Below are positions 1 through 50,841 of a stretch of DNA of 64,000 nucleotides, in pieces. The stretch covers positions 29,087 through 93,086 of the forward strand of contig JBGPYB010000002.1 in NCBI GenBank assembly GCA_041493035.1, in the 5' to 3' direction. The notes under the pieces were generated by a model, which ran no database searches, was not told where the DNA came from, and saw nothing but the letters and a program-made list of their open reading frames with translations. Made by a program: the position numbers and the translations under genes. The number at the start of each line of letters is the position of its first letter. Position 1 is the stretch's first letter. This DNA is from Vicinamibacteria bacterium (lineage in GTDB: Bacteria; Acidobacteriota; Vicinamibacteria; Fen-336).

Positions 1-150
1 TCCGATGCTGCGGTTTCCCAACTGCAGCCAAGCAGAAGCATTGCTGCTGCAGCACTTTGGTCCCCGGTGGGCCGCACGGCACAGAGCGTGCAAAGTCATT
101 GGTCCGTGGACCAGGGCAACATTCGCTTCGAGTCTTCTTCGGTCGCGCCC

Positions 151-732
151 ATGCAAAGGAGGTGTGCCGTGATAGCAAAGAACAGTCTCCTGGGGCTTCT
201 CTGCGGGTTGGTGCTCGTCGCTCCGGTCGCTGCCGAGAACCGTATCGGGATCCTGGGAGGCGTCAACCTCGCAACCTTCCACGAGACGCCTGCGGAAGAG
301 GGCCTCTTGAGCACACGGACTCTGTTCGAGGCAGGGGCCGTCGCGGACGTGGGTTTGGGCGGAAACCTCTCGATCCGGTTCGAGCCCATGTTTCTGGTGA
401 AGGGCAGCGACGTGAGCTTCGCTCTGTTCGGTCCGCCGCCGTCCGCCCCGAATGGTGGCTTGCGGCGGATCAACCTGGTGGACCTTCGAGAGGAGCCGCG
501 ACCGCTTGGCTTCGCGTTACATGCCGACACTGAAGGGCGACGTTCTTGGTCAAGAACTGTGGAGGCAGGCCATGAGAACCCGTTCGCTGGGAAAGCGAGG
601 TTGACATGCGATGTCACGAGTCTCAAGGTCGCGGCGCGGGCCCAGTTTCGCCGCCCAACGACACTGCTGGCGGTTGGAGCGGGCGTACAATTGGGACAGA
701 GAGGGACCTCGTGTGGCACTCCTGGGCGCTAA
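151..732 (+). CDS. Putative outer-membrane beta-barrel protein (OmpW/OMP_b-brl-like), probably C-terminally truncated
   Basis: The internal Met at 151 gives a signal peptide, MQRRCAVIAKNSLLGLLCGLVLVAPVAA. It is followed by alternating hydrophobic beta-strand-like segments (RIGILGGVNLATF, LSIRFEPMFLV). The ORF ends GTSCGTPGR without the usual terminal aromatic strand, 10 nt before the DUF4160 gene. Confidence 0.3.
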   Translation: MQRRCAVIAKNSLLGLLCGLVLVAPVAAENRIGILGGVNLATFHETPAEEGLLSTRTLFEAGAVADVGLGGNLSIRFEPMFLVKGSDVSFALFGPPPSAPNGGLRRINLVDLREEPRPLGFALHADTEGRRSWSRTVEAGHENPFAGKARLTCDVTSLKVAARAQFRRPTTLLAVGAGVQLGQRGTSCGTPGR

Positions 733-741
733 CTTCTGTCC

Positions 742-978
742 GTGCCCACGCTGCTCGTGGTCGAAGGGTTCCGGTTCTGGTTCTACAGCAACGAGGGGCA
801 AGAGCCGCCGCACGTGCACGTGAGCAACGGTGGGGCTTCTGCGAAACTTTGGCTGCAACCAGTTCGCATCGCGTACTCACACGGTTTGACTCCGGCCCAG
901 GTCCGGCGCGCCCGGGAGCTGGTCTTTGAGCACCAAGCCTCCTTCCTCGAGAGGTGGCATGACTACTTCGGTCGTTAG
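742..978 (+). CDS. DUF4160-family protein, the first gene of a DUF4160/DUF2442 toxin-antitoxin-like pair
   Basis: GTG start. The 78-aa product carries the characteristic FRFWFYSNEGQEPPHVHV motif of DUF4160. It overlaps the start of the next gene. Confidence 0.7.
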   Translation: MPTLLVVEGFRFWFYSNEGQEPPHVHVSNGGASAKLWLQPVRIAYSHGLTPAQVRRARELVFEHQASFLERWHDYFGR

Positions 979-1207
979 TCCGCCGAATGCTCGCGCCCGG
1001 AGCATCGACTTCGTACCGGACGCTTTCGTAGTGCACCTCGAAGATGGTCGGTCACTCACGGTGCCCATCGAGTGGTTCCCTCGCCTTCGAGACGCGACGG
1101 CGGAGCAGCGGAGCCGCTGGGAGCTGATCGGTCCTGGCTTCGGCATCCGCTGGCCCGATCTGGACGAGGACATTTCTGTGGCGGGTCTCCTCGGCCTCCC
1201 GGACTGA
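959..1207 (+). CDS. DUF2442-family protein, partner of the DUF4160 gene
   Basis: The internal ATG at 959 overlaps the stop of the upstream gene. The 82-aa product is small and acidic and matches DUF2442, which is usually paired with DUF4160. Confidence 0.65.
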   Translation: MTTSVVSPPNARARSIDFVPDAFVVHLEDGRSLTVPIEWFPRLRDATAEQRSRWELIGPGFGIRWPDLDEDISVAGLLGLPD

Positions 1208-1359
1208 CGTCACCCTTCCGCCTGCGCACTTCTCTGACCCTGCTGACGTGAGCGCCAATGGCGCTGCGCCAATTGCGCCAATGCCGATCGTTGACTCGCC
1301 AATGGTGGGGGGCGTACAGTCGTGCCCGCGGCCTCCCTCGCGGCCGTCCAGGTGGGTGC

Positions 1360-2613
1360 ATGATGCGCGGGCTTGGCACGATGTTGCTGGGAGTCGCGAT
1401 CGCAGGCGGCCTGCAAGCCAACGAGGAGCGAGATCCTCCGCTGGTGATAGAGAGCGCCGTTGCCGATCTGGACAACGGGCGCCTCGTCATCCAAGGCCGG
1501 GACTTCGGGACGGAACGCCTCGGAGTAAGGCTCGCCGGACGGACCCTGAAGGTGCTCCTGGCGAAGCCCAGGCAGATCACCGCGGCCCTGCCGCCCGGAA
1601 TCGCGCCGGGGAGCTACCTGCTCGTCGTGTCCCTTCGCGACGGAGGCCGGAAGAGCAACTCATTTGCCGTGACCATCGGAGCGGTCGGGCCGCCAGGACG
1701 CCAAGGGCAAAAAGGCGATAGGGGAGATCCTGGGCCAGCCGGCCCTGCCGGGATACAGGGGCCTGAAGGGCCAAAGGGCGCTGAGGGTCAAACCGGTCCA
1801 GCAGGCCCGCAAGGTCCTCCGGGCATCGTCGGCGCGTTCGATAGTCTCGCGGGTCTTCCCTGCACGCGAGGCGGTGTTGTTGGGTCCATCGTTCTCCTCT
1901 ATGCGACCAACGGCGACGCAAGTCTTCGCTGCGTGTTGCCCGACGTCCCCCCCCCGCCTCCCTCGCCGACGCCCTCGACCCCAGCGGTCCTTCTCCTCAA
2001 TGAGGTGAATCCGAACATCGTCGACATCGCTGGTACCCGGGACCTGATCGAGCTGGAAGTGGTCAGCGCGGGCAACTTGCAGAACATCACGGTTCAGATG
2101 CGCTTCACCAGCCCTCTAGTGCTGGCCACCCTGCCCGACCTGGCGGTGTCGGCCGGCGATCTCATTCTTGTGCACCTCAACCCACTGCCAGGCTGGATCA
2201 CCGAGTCTGCTAGTCGAGGCGATTGCACGGATGCTTCATGCGTGGCGAGCGCTTGGGACGTCAGGGGGAATGCCACTAGCATTCCTTTCACTACCGGTGT
2301 GTTGCTCGTGCGGGCCCCTGACGGCACGGTCCAGGACGGCGTCTCGTTCACGACGGGCGGCAGTATCAACCCAAACTTTGCGACTGACCTCCAGTCGCTT
2401 CAGGCTCTGGGGCTCTGGAGCCCCGCGGACTGCGGTGGCTCACTCTGCACGCTCACGTCTACGCCAACCGCACTGGATATATCGGCTTCGTGGGCCGGAT
2501 CGGCAAACAACGCAAGCGGGAGCAGCATTGGCCGCCACCCGAATGCGCAGGACACCAATTCCGCCAGTGATTGGCAAATCGAATTCGCGACTTTCGGAGG
2601 CCCGAACCCATAG
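1360..2613 (+). CDS. Secreted IPT/TIG - collagen-like triple-helix - lamin-tail-domain (LTD) protein
   Basis: ATGATG start with a signal-like N-terminus ([20 protein letters not shown]). An IPT-like block follows (LVIQGRDFG ... SYLLVVSL). Then come 17 uninterrupted GXY triplets ([52 protein letters not shown]) and a poly-Pro linker ([12 protein letters not shown]). The LTD-like motif LLLNEVNPN ... DLIELEV comes next, followed by a Cys-containing C-terminal domain. Confidence 0.7.
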
Positions 2614-2693
2614 CAAGGGCTGCGGGCGGACTCCGGGATGGGTTGGTTGGGACGGAGACTCAAGATGCGCGGTGACTTAGGAGGTATTGGGCC

Positions 2694-3233
2694 ATGGTGT
2701 CGATTGGAAGGATGTCGTCAGTGAGTCTCTTGGTGACAGGTTTGCTGGGGTTGGCACCGCCGACCACACAATCAGCGCCCGCAGTTCAGCCCCCGCCGAC
2801 GACTCAGGCGGCGCCAGCGAAAGCGGCGCCTGCGGCAGCGGCAAACCCGCCCTCTGCCGGAGTCATCCAGACCCAGGAAACCAACACCCAGGGCGTGGTC
2901 GCCGATGTAACCGAGTGCAAACGGAAGGACGGGGTGTTGACCGTCAAGCTCCGCATTCGGAACACCTCCGGCGGGACAGTGTCGTTCTATACGGACCGAC
3001 TCCGCGATTACGACAAGGTTTATCTCACCGCGGACAACAAGAAGTACTTCGCCCTGACAGACTCGGAGAAGCAGCCTCTTTGGGGCAGCACGACAGGAAA
3101 TGAGTCCCTGAGTCCCGGCCAGAGCTACCGGTGGTGGGCGAAGTTCCCGGCGCCTCCTGCGGCGGCGAAGAGTATCAACCTGCTCACGCCAGTGGCTTCA
3201 CCCTTCGACGACGTTCCCATCAGCGACCAATAG
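2694..3233 (+). CDS. Secreted hypothetical protein with a Pro/Ala/Thr-rich linker
   Basis: An AGGAGG Shine-Dalgarno (SD) sequence lies 9 nt upstream of the ATG. The signal peptide is MVSIGRMSSVSLLVTGLLGLA. A low-complexity PTTQ/AAPA linker is followed by a beta-rich domain. A 1-nt gap separates it from the OmpA-like gene downstream. Confidence 0.55.
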   Translation: MVSIGRMSSVSLLVTGLLGLAPPTTQSAPAVQPPPTTQAAPAKAAPAAAANPPSAGVIQTQETNTQGVVADVTECKRKDGVLTVKLRIRNTSGGTVSFYTDRLRDYDKVYLTADNKKYFALTDSEKQPLWGSTTGNESLSPGQSYRWWAKFPAPPAAAKSINLLTPVASPFDDVPISDQ

Positions 3234-3234
3234 G

Positions 3235-3843
3235 GTGATGGCGAAACGACTGCTGGTCTCGATCGGAATACTCCTCCTACTCGCTCGCGCCGTCCCTGCG
3301 CAGGGCAAGTACCCAGACCCGGATTCGCCCGCCGTAGAAGGCGCGGCGCGTGCGGCGCTCGCCAACGCGAAGGTCTTGGAGGTCAAAGCCAAGGTTCTGG
3401 ACATCATCGGTGTCAGCCGCGGTCTCAGCGGCGTCATGAAAGACCTTGGGGCCAAAGTGACCGATCAGGAGATCACCATCGAGCTGGCGGCTGACTTTCT
3501 CTTTGACTTTGACAAGTACGCTCTGAGGAGCGAGGCCACCGACAGCCTCCGCAAGGTCGGAGAGGTCGTCAAAGCTTATCCAAGAGCGCCGCTGCTGATT
3601 GAGGGGCACACGGACGGCAAAGGCACGCATCCCTACAACATGACGCTGTCGGAGAGCCGTGCTGTCTCGGTGAAGAACTGGCTGGTGCAAAATGCCGGGG
3701 TCGATCCCGCGCGGATCACCACCAGGGGCCTGGGAGAAACCAAGCCCGTCGCATCCAACGCCAACCCCGACGGCAGCGACAATCCCCAGGGCAGACAGAA
3801 GAACCGGCGAGTCTCGATAACACTGCGTACACGCTCTAACTGA
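3235..3843 (+). CDS. OmpA-family (OmpA/MotB C-terminal domain) protein
   Basis: GTG or ATG start at 3235 or 3238, with a signal peptide. The C-terminal OmpA_C motif reads FDFDKYALRSEA ... LLIEGHTDGKGTHPYNMTLSESRA ... ITTRGLGETKPVASN ... NRRVSI. Confidence 0.85.
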   Translation: MMAKRLLVSIGILLLLARAVPAQGKYPDPDSPAVEGAARAALANAKVLEVKAKVLDIIGVSRGLSGVMKDLGAKVTDQEITIELAADFLFDFDKYALRSEATDSLRKVGEVVKAYPRAPLLIEGHTDGKGTHPYNMTLSESRAVSVKNWLVQNAGVDPARITTRGLGETKPVASNANPDGSDNPQGRQKNRRVSITLRTRSN

Positions 3844-3859
3844 TTGATAATAAGCATAA

Positions 3860-3902
3860 TATAGATTGGAACTCTGAATGACTAGATAAGTTCCAATCTA
3901 TA
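3860..3902. promoter_or_regulatory. Perfect 14-bp inverted repeat inside an 82-bp AT-rich intergenic island: candidate operator, or a terminator for the upstream OmpA-like gene
   Basis: The left arm tatagattggaact spans 3860-3873. The right arm agttccaatctata spans 3889-3902, with a 15-nt spacer between them. Region 3844-3925 is strongly AT-rich in a 68% GC genome. A TACAAT box at 3914-3919 lies 6 nt before the GTG at 3926, and no SD is visible. Confidence 0.4.
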
Positions 3903-3925
3903 GTAGTTAGAGTTACAATAGTCCC

Positions 3926-4972
3926 GTGAAAGCACGTTCGGAGATCACGCAATTCATCGCTGCTCACATCGCCGAGCAGCAGTCCGGTCTTGCCCGGATG
4001 GTCTCCGAGCGATTCGGAATCAGTCGACAGGCGGCGAATCGAAACATCGCGCGCATGGTGAAGTCTGGGCTCGTTCTTGCCCATGGCAAGACGCGTGGTC
4101 GGCAGTACCGGCTCGCGACCCTGGGTCGGGTGCATGAGACCTTGGCCATCACACCGGAGCTGCAGGAGGATCAGGTCTGGGAGCGCCGTGTGCTACCCCT
4201 GTTGCGCGACGCGCCCGAGAACGTGCGGGACATTTGCAGCTACGGCTTCACCGAGATGGTCAACAACGCGAAGGACCATTCGGGTTCGCCCACGCTACTC
4301 ATCTTGGCCGAGGTCACGGCGGACGGCGTCACGATGGTGGTGAGAGACGAGGGTGTCGGGATTTTCCGCAAGATCAAGGACGCTCTGCACCTGGAGGATG
4401 AGCGCCACGCGATCCTGGAGCTCACCAAGGGGAAGTTCACCACGGACCCGGAACGCCACACGGGCGAAGGCGTCTTCTTCGCGTCACGCATGTTCGACTC
4501 GTTTGGCATAGGGTCCGGGCGACTCGGCCTCCTTCACCGGCGCGACACCCAGGACTTCCTGAGCGAGGACCGGCCGGAACATGCTGGCACGACGGTGGTC
4601 ATGGAGGCAAAGTTCGTTTCACAACATACAGCGAAGGAGGTGTTCGACCGGTACTCGACCGAGCAGGACGACTACGCGTTCCAGCGAACCCGCATCGTGG
4701 TCGCTTTGGCGGAGATCGAAGGCACGAAGCTCGTCTCTCGTTCTCAGGCCAAGCGAATCCTCGCCCGGCTCGATCGGTTCAAGGAGGTGATCCTCGACTT
4801 CAAGCGGGTCGAGAGCGTCGGACCCGCCTTCGCCGACGAGATGTTCCGCGTATACAGGTGTCAGCACCCGCAGGTGAACCTGATCCCGACCGAGGCCAAT
4901 GAAGAAGTGCAGAGGATGATCCGGCGCGCAGAGGCAGCCAGACAAACCATGATTCCCGCCCCGGGCTCTTGA
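3926..4972 (+). CDS. One-component regulator: N-terminal winged HTH + GHKL/HATPase_c (RsbW-like) domain + C-terminal STAS-like DUF4325 domain
   Basis: GTG start. The HTH segment is LARMVSERFGISRQAANRNIARMVKSGLV. The GHKL ATP-binding motifs are NNAKDHSG and VRDEGVGI ... TGEGVFFASR. The C-terminus (LDFKRVESVGPAFADEMFRVY) fits the STAS-like DUF4325 domain. Confidence 0.7.
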   Translation: MKARSEITQFIAAHIAEQQSGLARMVSERFGISRQAANRNIARMVKSGLVLAHGKTRGRQYRLATLGRVHETLAITPELQEDQVWERRVLPLLRDAPENVRDICSYGFTEMVNNAKDHSGSPTLLILAEVTADGVTMVVRDEGVGIFRKIKDALHLEDERHAILELTKGKFTTDPERHTGEGVFFASRMFDSFGIGSGRLGLLHRRDTQDFLSEDRPEHAGTTVVMEAKFVSQHTAKEVFDRYSTEQDDYAFQRTRIVVALAEIEGTKLVSRSQAKRILARLDRFKEVILDFKRVESVGPAFADEMFRVYRCQHPQVNLIPTEANEEVQRMIRRAEAARQTMIPAPGS

Positions 4973-5022
4973 CCACGACGCCGAACTCCGCGCTATGCTT
5001 CCTGTTCGGGGAGATCGCCTTC

Positions 5023-6177
5023 ATGCCCTTCTACCACCAGCTCGGCCGTGTCCCACCGAAGCGCCACGTGGTGCTTCGCACGGCGGACGGGGCGCTATGC
5101 TTCGAGGAGCTGGTCGGGAACAAGGGTTTCACCGGGCCGTCGTCGCTGCTCTACCACCTCCGGCTTCCGACGGCCGTCAAGAGCGTGCGCCTCTTCCGAG
5201 ACCTCGCGTGGGCGCGGGAGGAGGACCAGACGCTGCGCCACCGGCACTTTCGGACGGCTTCCCTCGAGACGGGGCCGAGTGCCGTTCTCGACCGCGTGCC
5301 TTTGCTCTACAACGACGACGTCGCCCTGGAGATGGTGAGGCCGCGGCAGGAGGACGAGTTCTTCTACAGGAACGGCCAGGGAGACGAGGTCGTCTTCGTG
5401 ACCGAAGGCGAGGGGGTTCTCGAGTCGCCCTTCGGCGTGGTCGCGTTCCAGTCGGGCGACTACGTCGTGATTCCCCGCGGGGTGCTTCATCGCTACCGTC
5501 TCGCCCCCTGCCCCCAGCGCTTTCTCGTGATCGAGAGCCGCGGCGATGTGCGCACGCCGAAGCGATATCGGAACGAGCACGGTCAGATGCTGGAAGGCGC
5601 GCCTTACTCGGAGCGGGATTTCCGGCGTCCGGAGAAGCTCGAGACCCGCGACGAGGCCGGAGAATTCCGGGTCCTCGTCAAGGCCGCGAACCGCATCACG
5701 GAGATCATCATGGCTCACCATCCCTTCGACGTGGTGGGCTGGGACGGGTACTACTATCCGTGGGCCTTCAGCATTCACGACTTCGAGCCCAAGGTAGGCC
5801 GCGTCCACCTGCCCCCGCCCGTGCATCAGACGTTCGAGGGAGACGGCTTCGTGATCTGCTCCTTCTGTCCGCGTCCTTATGACTTCGATAAAGACGCGAT
5901 CCCCGCTCCCTACAGCCACCAGAACGTGATGTCCGACGAGGTCCTCTACTACGCCAACGCGGAGTTCATGAGCCGGAAAGGGATCGAGTATGGCTCCATC
6001 ACCCTCCACCCCGACGGCCTGCCCCACGGTCCGCAGCCAGGGAAGACGGAAGAGTCGATCGGCGCGAAGTGGACGGGCGAGCTGGCGGTGATGGTGGACA
6101 CGTTCAAGCCGCTCCGCGCGAGTCGGCAGGCTCTCGCCCTCGAGGATGCCGGCTATGCCTTGTCGTGGCTCGTATGA
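5023..6177 (+). CDS. hmgA: Homogentisate 1,2-dioxygenase
   Basis: Conserved HGD blocks are present, including HLPPPVHQTF, SFCPRPYDF and SHQNVMSDE. An ATG at 5023 has GGGGAG upstream. A TTG at 4969 is an alternative start. Confidence 0.85.
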   Translation: MPFYHQLGRVPPKRHVVLRTADGALCFEELVGNKGFTGPSSLLYHLRLPTAVKSVRLFRDLAWAREEDQTLRHRHFRTASLETGPSAVLDRVPLLYNDDVALEMVRPRQEDEFFYRNGQGDEVVFVTEGEGVLESPFGVVAFQSGDYVVIPRGVLHRYRLAPCPQRFLVIESRGDVRTPKRYRNEHGQMLEGAPYSERDFRRPEKLETRDEAGEFRVLVKAANRITEIIMAHHPFDVVGWDGYYYPWAFSIHDFEPKVGRVHLPPPVHQTFEGDGFVICSFCPRPYDFDKDAIPAPYSHQNVMSDEVLYYANAEFMSRKGIEYGSITLHPDGLPHGPQPGKTEESIGAKWTGELAVMVDTFKPLRASRQALALEDAGYALSWLV

Positions 6178-50676: not shown

Positions 50677-50759
50677 AGACTCTTCGGCCTCTCTTACCGA
50701 TTCTCCCTGTTACCAGGCGTAGTTAACGCTGCGTCCCGACCACTGCATCAGAAAACCGC

Positions 50760-50787
50760 TTGACACCTGGTGGCCTCGTCCTTTAAT
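50760..50787 (+). promoter_or_regulatory. Sigma70-like promoter candidate upstream of the TonB-dependent receptor gene
   Basis: TTGACA lies at 50760-50765. A 16-nt spacer precedes TTTAAT at 50782-50787. Both sit in a locally AT-rich 165-bp intergenic region about 55 nt before the ATG at 50842. Confidence 0.3.
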
Positions 50788-50841
50788 AAGGACAGCAGAC
50801 TTAGTAAAGCAATTTAACTAAGAAACCCGGAGGCGGATCCC

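Follow-up and report, generated by a model that had tools for sequence, protein, structure and literature searches.

The window (the whole 64-kb stretch of DNA that was analysed) carries at 3844-4972 a cassette of approximately 1.1 kb that is, as judged by sequence comparison, compact, self-contained and horizontally mobile, and we propose, with slightly better than even confidence, that it encodes an ATP-dependent, one-component, autorepressing DNA-binding regulator. Anti-sigma-type kinase-STAS pairs were recently shown to be active outside sigma control, i.e., in the CapK/CapS immune-operon regulators and the VapKSC toxin-antitoxin switch. The window locus is a third arrangement of kinase and STAS, far more widespread in environmental bacteria, in which the two are joined in one chain, the STAS phospho-acceptor is lost, the ATP site is strictly conserved, and the gene moves between genomes along with a phased array of its own candidate sites. 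If the proposed mechanism is true, the cassette would be a portable repressor of minimal size, gated by ATP and equipped with a clearly defined operator, and also a natural test of the role of a non-phosphorylatable STAS domain for a GHKL kinase; the co-varying pairs of recognition helix and site would provide material for dissecting wHTH specificity.

The coding sequence (3926..4972, + strand) starts with GTG, specifies 348 amino acids (aa) and is probably leaderless. There is an in-frame TAG at 3908-3910, the first start codon 3' of this TAG is GTG 3926, and the GTG is supported as the start because homologues align from residue 2-6 on. Three domains are arranged on the + strand in the order of a winged helix-turn-helix (wHTH) domain (aa 1-75, 3926..4150; recognition helix at about aa 34-46, SRQAANRNIARMV), a GHKL ATP-binding domain of the anti-sigma-factor kinase class (aa 81-245, 4166..4660), and a STAS-like domain, Pfam DUF4325 (aa 254-340, 4685..4945). 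The first-pass annotation had read the same order (wHTH, RsbW/SpoIIAB-like GHKL, STAS-like DUF4325) correctly; the HMM support that it called for was obtained for the last domain (DUF4325, PF14213: 49.1 bits against a cut-off of 23, E 4.6e-13, residues 274-329), whereas HATPase_c_2 (PF13581: residues 97-195, E 7e-5, 23.2 bits against 27.4), HATPase_c (PF02518: 19.3 bits against 26.4) and a MarR_2/HTH match (residues 23-50, E 3e-5) fell under the Pfam gathering scores. Several homologues do carry Pfam HATPase_c_2/HATPase_c matches, and one relative is named "DUF4325 domain-containing protein" by NCBI. The GHKL motifs are all present, i.e., the N box (E110-x3-N114-x3-H118), G1 (D141-x-G143-x-G145) and G2 (G180-x-G182), and each of these residues is invariant in 121 distinct sequences. 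In the STAS-like domain, the phospho-serine S48 of VapS aligns with Pro300 of the window protein (codon 4823-4825), and this column contains Gln in 104 of the 121 family sequences, Pro in 11, Arg in 3, and His, Ala and Ile in one each, never Ser or Thr. By these alignments the protein is a wHTH domain joined to a SpoIIAB/RsbW-class GHKL domain with its ATP-binding/catalytic motifs intact and to a VapS-type STAS domain.

More than 7600 full-length homologues of the window protein were found, forming at least 784 clusters at 50% identity (E<1e-30), with P0002 as the closest homologue (70% identity); this is a large family, kin to the CapK/CapS and VapK/VapS damage-sensing regulators. Cultured carriers of a family gene include the Lachnospiraceae isolates 1XD21-70 and D16-56 from mouse gut. 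Searches of NCBIfam, PADLOC and PDB sequences with the protein returned nothing informative, PADLOC giving weak HTH similarity only, and PHROGs gave only weak partial matches, among them one of the wHTH domain to a Ren-like exclusion protein (E 4e-5). The protein has no Pfam match above gathering score to the MarR/ArsR-type winged-helix repressors.

The OmpA-family gene upstream ends at 3843, leaving an intergenic region at 3844-3925 (+ strand) that we regard as the AT-rich promoter region and candidate operator of the cassette. It was previously singled out as an 82-bp stretch standing out in a 68% GC genome; the AT-richness is real (30.5% GC), and the background figure is better given as the window mean of 66.8%. 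The lowest-GC 82-bp stretch of the entire 64 kb lies within this region, and just one further stretch falls below 45% GC. No Rfam match was detected in a scan of 3300-5300. The region contains three exact copies of a 9-bp site, the only ones in the 64 kb: site 1, ATTGGAACT (reverse complement AGTTCCAAT), in inverted orientation at 3865..3873 on the - strand; site 2, AGTTCCAAT, in direct orientation at 3889..3897 on the + strand, over the -35 position; and site 3, AGTTACAAT, at 3911..3919 on the + strand, including the -10 box. The direct pair is spaced 22 bp from start to start. Site 3 is a third half-site copy overlooked in the earlier reading, which had described a 14-bp inverted repeat (3860..3902) with arms tatagattggaact at 3860-3873 and agttccaatctata at 3889-3902. 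These arms are indeed perfect complements (14 of 14, with a 15-nt spacer), extending to 17 nt if one mismatch is allowed, but the palindrome is not kept as a unit, relatives retaining the inner 9 bp only. TTGGAA of site 1 and TTACAAT of site 3 are invariant in five relatives, in which the 15-bp length of the spacer after site 1 is held and its sequence varies, and the whole layout (inverted site-N15-site-N13-site with TACAAT-N6-start) is kept, with diverged spacers, in relatives of 54-65% identity. Across these relatives the conserved element is the 9-bp site, not the 14-bp palindrome. The inverted repeat can fold (-20.2 kcal/mol, z -3.3); a role as intrinsic terminator of the ompA-like gene was rejected, there being no U-tract after it and only the 9-bp core being conserved.

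The putative promoter consists of the -35 hexamer TTCCAA (3891-3896), a 17-bp spacer and the -10 box TACAAT (3914-3919). The right arm of the inverted repeat does cover the -35 position by coordinates, as had been claimed, but TTCCAA agrees with TTGACA at 3 of 6 positions only, and the TTCCAA/TACAAT promoter was not called in a generic promoter scan. TACAAT sits 6 nt before the GTG with no GGAG-like Shine-Dalgarno sequence between them, exactly as first described, and TACAAT-N6-start is found again in the closest relatives. The leaderless signature was counted at 21 of the 113 distinct loci, compared with 0.3% of internal start codons, and a leaderless transcript of the regulator gene is thus plausible.

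The upstream sites were compared across more than 110 homologous loci, with 113 distinct loci used for site counts. The family pattern is two to five direct repeats upstream of the gene, phased at 21-22 bp: the 113 loci contain a mean of 2.14 core sites per 150 nt upstream (0.05 in shuffled sequence), and 129 of 151 successive site pairs are spaced 21 or 22 bp apart. In 925 kb of sequence from family loci there are 146 phased repeat pairs, and every one is located no more than 300 bp upstream of the gene; none lies downstream, and no sites were detected at the 3' end of the cassette, where a transposon with two ends would be expected to have them. Among the 41 loci without the common motif, 27 repeat another 9-mer at 21-22 bp, and any other spacing between 10 and 40 bp accounts for at most three. 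The type of site follows the recognition helix, since two or more common sites are present in 63 of 75 loci with an R34-Q35..H40 helix and in 9 of the 36 whose helix is different (odds ratio 15.8, a value that carries no phylogenetic correction). In most family members the equivalent of site 2 is GTTGACAAT, which provides a consensus TTGACA -35; this common site is itself -35-like and -10-like, so that its conservation may be due in part to RNA polymerase and not to the protein. The two-site motif is also not exclusive to the family, because the same pattern occurs on 109 viral contigs without a family gene close by. Approximately half of these gene-less arrays lie within long open reading frames (ORFs), and several of those inspected read as repeated V-D-N codons. 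The occurrence of such arrays weakens the operator interpretation and does not overturn it. We consider it very likely, from the position, phasing and helix dependence of the repeats, that they are the protein's own operator.

In the mechanism that we favor, protomers would bind the 9-bp sites through their wHTH domains on one face of the DNA, 21-22 bp corresponding to two helical turns, and the bound protomers would cover the -35 and -10 elements and shut down expression of their own gene, the transcript of which is probably leaderless. Sensing or switching would fall to the GHKL-STAS pair, in which ATP binding/hydrolysis, or a ligand at the GHKL/STAS interface (ssDNA in CapK being an analogy), may alter oligomerisation or DNA affinity. 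Since it has no phospho-acceptor serine, the STAS domain would serve the kinase domain not as a substrate but as a docking partner that cannot be phosphorylated (pseudo-substrate) or as a ligand-binding partner, and might contact the kinase domain in cis or between adjacent protomers. Any output past autoregulation could involve unlinked operator arrays, a trans substrate of the kinase, or sequestration of an unlinked sigma factor. With its own promoter as the sole detectable target, such a regulator would bring the cell no obvious advantage, and the autorepressor account therefore lacks an essential part of the function.

The logic of this model has a precedent in the CapK-CapS system (Chambers et al., EMBO J 2026, PMC13373217; VapK-VapS-VapC is described in the same paper), in which the GHKL kinase CapK controls CapS, a STAS-wHTH autorepressor that acts on promoter-overlapping repeats and is able to form oligomers along the DNA (PMC13373217). 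In both cases anti-sigma-type GHKL, STAS and (w)HTH domains are combined for transcription control, and the candidate sites of the window family, which overlap the -35 and -10 elements, are gene-specific and vary with the recognition helix, may be compared with CapS-type promoter repeats. The two systems differ in gene number (adjacent capK and capS encoding two proteins versus a single gene here), in domain order (HTH-STAS-GHKL in CapK versus wHTH-GHKL-STAS), and in the DNA elements (TTAA palindromes for CapS versus 9-bp direct repeats at 21-22 bp). CapK and CapS both fail to reach Pfam DUF4325, and hhalign detected no full-length homology to either, aligning 29 HTH columns with CapS (probability 11%) and 47 columns with CapK (N box to G1, probability 73%). 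VapS, the first characterised DUF4325 protein (PMC13373217), does match that Pfam model (E 2.7e-17); it shares an EVILDFxxV...F motif with residues 287-302 of the window protein, and its partner is likewise a GHKL kinase. VapS differs in being a free-standing 116-aa antitoxin that is phosphorylated at S48 and bound to a PIN toxin, whereas the DUF4325 domain in the window is fused to a kinase-like domain and has Pro at the S48 position and no nearby PIN gene.

The regulator gene appears to travel alone. Its 144 immediate neighbours are spread over 130 Pfam families, none recurrent, and are mostly ordinary metabolic or housekeeping genes; the neighbourhood check suggested in the first-pass annotation accordingly turned up no conserved partner, nor did all-against-all blastp of flanking ORFs from 12 and then approximately 115 loci, or the gene tables of long contigs. 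No sigma factor or PP2C phosphatase was detected in the window neighbourhood, in three other gene tables, or among the most frequent families of the 144 neighbours, and no PIN gene is adjacent in the window or found among those most frequent families; at one locus (L015) a PIN gene lies 7.5 kb away as part of another module. Of the four genes that flank the regulator in the window, PADLOC recognised none as a defence gene, and the OmpA protein matched generic MotB/ZorB models only. Homology among relatives stops approximately 85-300 bp upstream of the gene and within approximately 190 bp past its stop codon. In the window, the right-hand synteny break falls at 4957..4963, from where the sequence aligns with cassette-less hmgA loci of related genomes (blastn alignments of L132, L133 and L134 begin at 4958, 4963 and 4957, respectively). 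In this genome the cassette occupies the margin of a variable segment with lower GC and directly adjoins the conserved sequence upstream of the homogentisate-degradation operon, which is not generally accompanied by the cassette. Horizontal acquisition, previously argued from base composition, is upheld by the broken synteny and the cassette boundaries; GC content was set aside as a sign of it because the three genes on the left are equally GC-poor (61-65%), so that the dip in the regulator gene (62.1%, below the window mean) is not specific to it.

Several other explanations were weighed against autorepression. The protein had been taken at first for a one-component partner switch, in which the GHKL kinase would phosphorylate the fused STAS domain, as RsbW does RsbV, and toggle the protein between states. 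We now regard a phosphorylation-driven switch of this kind as quite unlikely, because the canonical acceptor is Pro300 in the window protein and 115 of the 121 family members have Gln or Pro there, with Ser or Thr in none, whereas VapS and CapS retain an absolutely conserved Ser/Thr at this position, a phospho-serine in CapS (PMC13373217); there is also no conserved partner nearby, and neither neighbourhoods nor the neighbour census link a PP2C phosphatase or sigma factor to the gene. The SpoIIAB-SpoIIAA and RsbW-RsbV modules rely on separate proteins with a phosphorylatable STAS serine, on a PP2C phosphatase and on a cognate sigma factor; nothing of this kind was found here, and the modules have no DNA-binding domain. 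A fused version is represented by Mycobacterium tuberculosis Rv1364c, a PAS-RsbU-RsbW-RsbV fusion (structure 3ke6 covering the RsbU and RsbW domains). Rv1364c has sensor PAS and PP2C phosphatase domains and is not known to have a wHTH, and its STAS domain is reportedly phosphorylatable. A rather unlikely reading, which still deserves some weight, is that of a CapK-like sensor kinase for stress or DNA damage with a target encoded at a distance, or of an anti-sigma factor that is tethered to DNA and sequesters a sigma factor not linked to the gene, autoregulation then setting only the protein level. CapK has the same three domain types, though ordered differently; the shared N-box to G1 segment includes DHSxSP (34% identity), although the similarity is limited to those 47 columns. 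The groove in which CapK senses ssDNA lies between two of its own domains, STAS and GHKL, joined in one chain as they are here, and its STAS domain is not a substrate (PMC13373217), which is a precedent for a non-substrate STAS beside a GHKL domain, and for the anti-sigma option, sigma factors are bound by SpoIIAB-class domains (1l0o). Against both, the data point to no substrate and no sigma factor, and the window family has neither a CapS-like partner nor an immune operon close by, its neighbours being scattered and unconserved, whereas 348 of 443 capKS loci lie next to immune operons (PMC13373217). It is also conceivable, though we think it unlikely, that the cassette is a new autonomous one-protein switch, which would form a head-to-tail polymer along the direct repeats, the GHKL domain of one protomer contacting the serine-less STAS domain of the next across repeats two helical turns apart. 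The polymer would come apart through ATP turnover or a stress ligand (e.g., ssDNA), and the freed protein might find other targets, working as a kinase or an anti-sigma factor or on matching arrays in invading DNA, in which case the cassette would be a mobile stress/immunity module distinct from CapKS and VapKSC. Matching repeat arrays do occur in viral contigs that lack the gene.

The remaining two explanations concern the surroundings of the gene rather than its domains. A stand-alone anti-phage or exclusion gene ("moron") carried on mobile elements would be consistent with the patchy distribution across phyla, the compact cassette in unrelated contexts, 35 copies on predicted viral/prophage contigs, IS1595-like transposases adjoining the gene in 7 loci and integrases in 4, the work of DUF4325 relatives in the VapKSC anti-phage toxin-antitoxin system, and the weak Ren-like match of the wHTH domain. 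We nevertheless hold it to be very improbable: the protein has no effector or toxin domain, PADLOC gives nothing beyond the weak HTH similarity, and the neighbours are chiefly metabolic or housekeeping genes. A tblastn search of 50,697 GenBank phage records and 72,556 PLSDB plasmids also yielded no homologue, so the mobile character does not derive from known phages or plasmids. Least credible is a local regulator of the downstream homogentisate (hmgA) operon, to which we give hardly any weight. In its favor, that operon has the same orientation as the regulator gene, whose stop codon (4972) is followed after just 50 bp by the likely hmgA start (5023); no terminator was predicted in this gap, and the stop codon (4970-4972) falls inside a conserved TTGACC block upstream of hmgA. 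Closely related hmgA operons (78-85% DNA identity), however, keep this block with other genes in place of the cassette, the gene that follows in other family loci shows no conservation and has the opposite orientation in 47 of 84 of them, and within the 64 kb the three sites are confined to the regulator's own promoter region. Translational coupling to the downstream gene through TTG 4969, which overlaps the stop codon, was rejected because homologues of the downstream protein are 384-398 aa long and start at the equivalent of ATG 5023.

The reading frame at 3926-4972 (+ strand, GTG start) encodes a 348-aa protein that the first-pass annotation had described as a winged helix-turn-helix (wHTH), an RsbW-like GHKL ATPase and a STAS-like DUF4325 domain fused in one chain. 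In Pfam searches DUF4325 passed the threshold (E = 4.6e-13) but HATPase_c_2 (E = 7e-5) and a MarR-type HTH (E = 3e-5) did not; the domain set is nevertheless judged right, as all three parts are supported by a confident AlphaFold model (pLDDT 87, pTM 0.81, 58 homologues as input) that places a three-helix winged HTH at aa 1-75, a Bergerat-fold domain at aa 81-245 and an alpha/beta STAS-like domain at aa 254-340. Among 121 distinct family sequences no variation was found in the N box (E110/N114/H118), G1 (D141/G143/G145) and G2 (G180/G182), and strong selection acts on ATP binding and probably also on catalysis. Residues T255, S271, R272, S273 and R277 at the beginning of the STAS domain are invariant and the lid sequence TTDPxxHTGEG is highly conserved in the family; both mark surfaces of interest.

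Full-length relatives (340-370 aa) number more than 7600 in a protein collection clustered at 90%, and among representatives at 50% identity, searched exhaustively, matches amount to 784 clusters with E<1e-30 and 2679 with E<1e-3. They are named "anti-sigma regulatory factor (Ser/Thr protein kinase)", "ArsR family regulator" or "DUF4325 domain-containing protein" in the source databases, and a literature search on the wHTH-GHKL-STAS architecture found no functional study. Genome matches come from Vicinamibacteria, Eisenbacteria, Spirochaetia, a gammaproteobacterial symbiont, Fermentibacteraceae, Pseudobdellovibrionaceae, Planctomycetaceae and Lachnospiraceae, i.e., the distribution is patchy and crosses phyla. 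The window is itself probably of Vicinamibacteria origin, to judge by the named relatives of its downstream hmgA gene. The locus belongs to a large uncharacterised family in which the GHKL-kinase/STAS regulatory theme takes a new form.

Two systems with this theme have been described (Chambers et al., EMBO J 2026, PMC13373217). CapK has the order HTH-STAS-GHKL and becomes active as a kinase when ssDNA binds between the STAS and GHKL domains of its own chain. It phosphorylates a conserved serine of the STAS-wHTH autorepressor CapS, so that the CapS dimer comes apart and CapS leaves its promoter-overlapping repeats; in the toxin-antitoxin system VapK-VapS-VapC, phosphorylation of VapS S48 frees the PIN toxin. 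We compared the CapK, CapS and VapS sequences in the source files of that paper with the family. The family profile matches CapK over the N box-G1 region only (47 columns, 34% identity, DHSxSP in both, probability 73%) and CapS weakly in the HTH only, and neither protein matches Pfam DUF4325. VapS is clearly DUF4325 (E = 2.7e-17) and shares the motif EVILDFxxV....F with the window protein (residues 287-302), but its phospho-serine S48 aligns with Pro300. The equivalent column holds Gln in 104 of the 121 family sequences, Pro in 11, Arg in three and His, Ala or Ile in one each, with no Ser or Thr in any; the column after it is Ala or Gly in 118. The proposal of a partner switch by phosphorylation within a single protein is therefore probably wrong.

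The gene is preceded by an OmpA-family gene ending at 3843 and by an intergenic region (3844-3925) with a GC content of 30.5% versus 66.8% for the window, within which the 64 kb reach their highest AT content over 82 bp. The sole other stretch below 45% GC (82-bp frame) lies at 50739-50831, with a minimum of 41%. The inverted repeat reported earlier is exact, with arms at 3860-3873 and 3889-3902 complementary in 14 of 14 positions around a 15-nt spacer (17 nt if one mismatch is allowed). Its role as an operator is likely, with the modification that only the inner 9 bp of each arm (3865-3873, - strand; 3889-3897, + strand) are conserved and that the palindrome belongs to a larger operator with three sites: a third half-site, AGTTACAAT at 3911-3919, overlooked in the first-pass annotation, starts 22 bp after AGTTCCAAT (3889-3897) and includes the -10 box. 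These three are the only exact copies in the window; four one-mismatch matches elsewhere are dispersed and at chance level.

Similar repeats were found throughout the family. In 113 distinct upstream regions from 131 collected loci, the core TT[GT][AC]CAA, typically within (A/G)GTTGACAAT or GTTTACAAT, has a coding-strand density of 2.14 per 150 nt, compared to 0.05 in shuffled sequence. Successive sites are spaced by 21 or 22 bp in 129 of 151 cases and by 43-44 bp in nine more. All 146 phased pairs in 925 kb of family loci lie within 300 bp upstream of a family gene, with none downstream or elsewhere. The common core is absent from 41 loci, 27 of which have another 9-mer repeated at 21-22 bp (e.g., TTTTTGTCA, TATAGTTAA, AAACAACTA, CTTGTCAAT, GGTTTCTA and AGTAGCAA), while at any other single spacing of 10-40 bp at most three have a repeat; the phasing persists where the site sequence changes. 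The type of site also tracks the recognition helix: two or more common sites are present in 63 of 75 loci whose helix is R34-Q35..H40 and in nine of the 36 that have a different helix (odds ratio 15.8, p = 2e-9, without correction for shared ancestry). In the window the helix RQAANRNI goes with the site AGTT(C/A)CAAT.

The 21-22 bp phasing leaves 17-18 bp between TTGACA in one repeat and (T/G)ACAAT in the repeat that follows, which is promoter geometry, so that a bound protein would cover both hexamers. The common site resembles sigma-70 hexamers and may thus be conserved in part because of RNA polymerase; core-less loci, in which unrelated repeats keep this phasing, argue against polymerase as the whole cause. 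The pattern GTTGACAAT-N12/13-GTTGACAAT was also detected in 109 viral contigs (L135-L243) without a family gene. In 57 of these it lies inside a long ORF, several of those inspected being repeated V-D-N codons, and in 52 no long ORF contains it and any ORF that follows is an unrelated one; these 52 could be ordinary promoters, sites of other proteins or targets in trans. The flank TAAGGTTGACAAT of family operators is also seen in viral contigs L160, L170 and L173, and the flanks in L154 and L166 are similar. For the family's own arrays, being phased and specific to the gene, a role as predicted operator sites is the favored reading.

Four relatives (L244, L245, L019 and L020; 54-65% identity) share the window layout, i.e., inverted ATTGGAAAC, 15 bp, GTTTCCAA(T/A) or GTTTACAAT, 13 bp, (G/A)TTTACAAT, 6 bp and the start codon. 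Within this subclade TTGGAA, TT.CA and TTACAAT do not vary, and the spacers have unrelated sequences. Only in the window's genome do the arms extend outward by TATAG/CTATA, and only there is the region extremely AT-rich; in the relatives, whose genomes have 56-69% GC, the 82 nt before the start have 39-52%. An in-frame TAG at 3908-3910 makes GTG 3926 the earliest possible start, and homologue alignments begin at residues 2-6. TACAAT (3914-3919) stands 6 nt before this GTG with no Shine-Dalgarno sequence, and its recurrence in the subclade relatives supports a leaderless mRNA, which had been proposed from the window and is a likely prediction. Family-wide, a -10-like hexamer lies 5-9 nt before an in-frame start in 21 of 113 loci (0.3% for internal start codons), and 36 of 113 have a Shine-Dalgarno-like leader instead. 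Several database homologues (P0046, P0049 and P0100; protein alignment A1, columns 1-40) carry N-terminal extensions containing "VYN". Such extensions are start-codon overcalls, the translated GTT-TAC-AAT of the operator/-10 box, and serve as an annotation warning for the family.

The data show the domain composition, an ATP site that is intact, a STAS domain lacking the serine, phased and gene-specific sites that track the recognition helix and overlap the promoter hexamers, and a solo cassette. We infer a mechanism in which the wHTH would bind these sites along a single face of the DNA and the bound protein would repress its own promoter, probably a leaderless one. The GHKL-STAS pair would gate DNA binding or repression through nucleotide state or a ligand, the STAS domain acting as a docking or ligand-binding partner, not as phospho-acceptor. 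The prevalence of direct over inverted repeats would fit, speculatively, heterotypic head-to-tail contacts, possibly GHKL-to-STAS between neighbors. The operator array and the lost phospho-site lead to clear, testable predictions.

The gene is solo and travels as a cassette with its upstream sites. Flanking ORFs of the collected loci have nothing in common, so the conserved partners (e.g., defense or stress genes) for which a neighborhood search had been suggested are not found there. When 316 neighbors were clustered by similarity, the largest clusters were an IS1595-like transposase (n = 7) and a tyrosine integrase (n = 4); 144 immediate neighbors fall into 130 distinct Pfam families, the commonest, HTH_3, occurring four times, and in 47 of 84 loci the next gene downstream is read in the opposite direction. 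In independent close-relative pairs from differing contexts (L008/L009, L017/L018, L104/L105, L119/L120, L117/L119, L032/L048, L027/L028 and L075/L086), DNA homology begins about 85-160 bp before the start codon (about 300 bp in one pair) and stops within 50 bp after the stop codon (130-190 bp in two pairs). L008 and L009, from the mouse-gut Lachnospiraceae isolates 1XD21-70 and D16-56, carry copies 90% identical whose shared DNA begins 84 bp ahead of the start and reaches no further than the stop codon, the surroundings being entirely different; both strains are cultured carriers usable experimentally. No homologue was found in GenBank phages or PLSDB plasmids, and 35 copies lie on predicted viral or prophage contigs (IMG/VR). 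The IS1595-like DDE transposase adjoins the gene in L027, L036, L037, L039, L050, L061 and L077, a 3' remnant of one lies upstream of the cassette in L017 and L018, and tyrosine integrases are neighbors or near-neighbors in L023, L100, L102 and L129; such neighbors may hint at the mode of spread.

Three related loci of the downstream homogentisate dioxygenase-like gene (hmgA), 78-85% identical in DNA over several kb, align to the window only rightwards of 4957-4963 and have other genes to the left, which puts the cassette at the right edge of a variable, lower-GC segment. This segment (about 1-4956; 900-8000 in L013) is 60-64% GC, shows no synteny with related Vicinamibacteria-like contigs and encodes DUF2442, a collagen-repeat protein with a TP_1001_2nd domain, a 179-aa unknown protein and the OmpA-family lipoprotein; in the relative L134 a Pkinase/PD40/Tricorn_N gene directly precedes hmgA instead. 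Horizontal acquisition, suggested earlier from the GC content of the gene, is better supported by this broken synteny, because the gene GC (62.1%) is the same as that of its left-hand neighbors. The cassette stop codon (4970-4972) falls inside a block (4957-5022) kept in the three related loci, with TTGACC at 4969-4974 and TATGCT at 4994-4999, which is probably the hmgA operon promoter. The listed hmgA start, TTG 4969 (ORF 4969-6177, overlapping the stop codon), is probably wrong, the 120 best homologues being 384-398 aa long and covering only 95-96% of that ORF; ATG 5023 is most likely the true start. Next in the operon, which does not regularly accompany the family, are genes for a 297-aa unknown protein, an FAA hydrolase, a protein with two Glyoxalase domains (HPPD-like) and a glutathione peroxidase. 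Antisense ORFs within the family gene (4240-4509 and 4619-4945, both - strand), seemingly "conserved" in L001 and L002, were rejected as shadows of the conserved sense frame.
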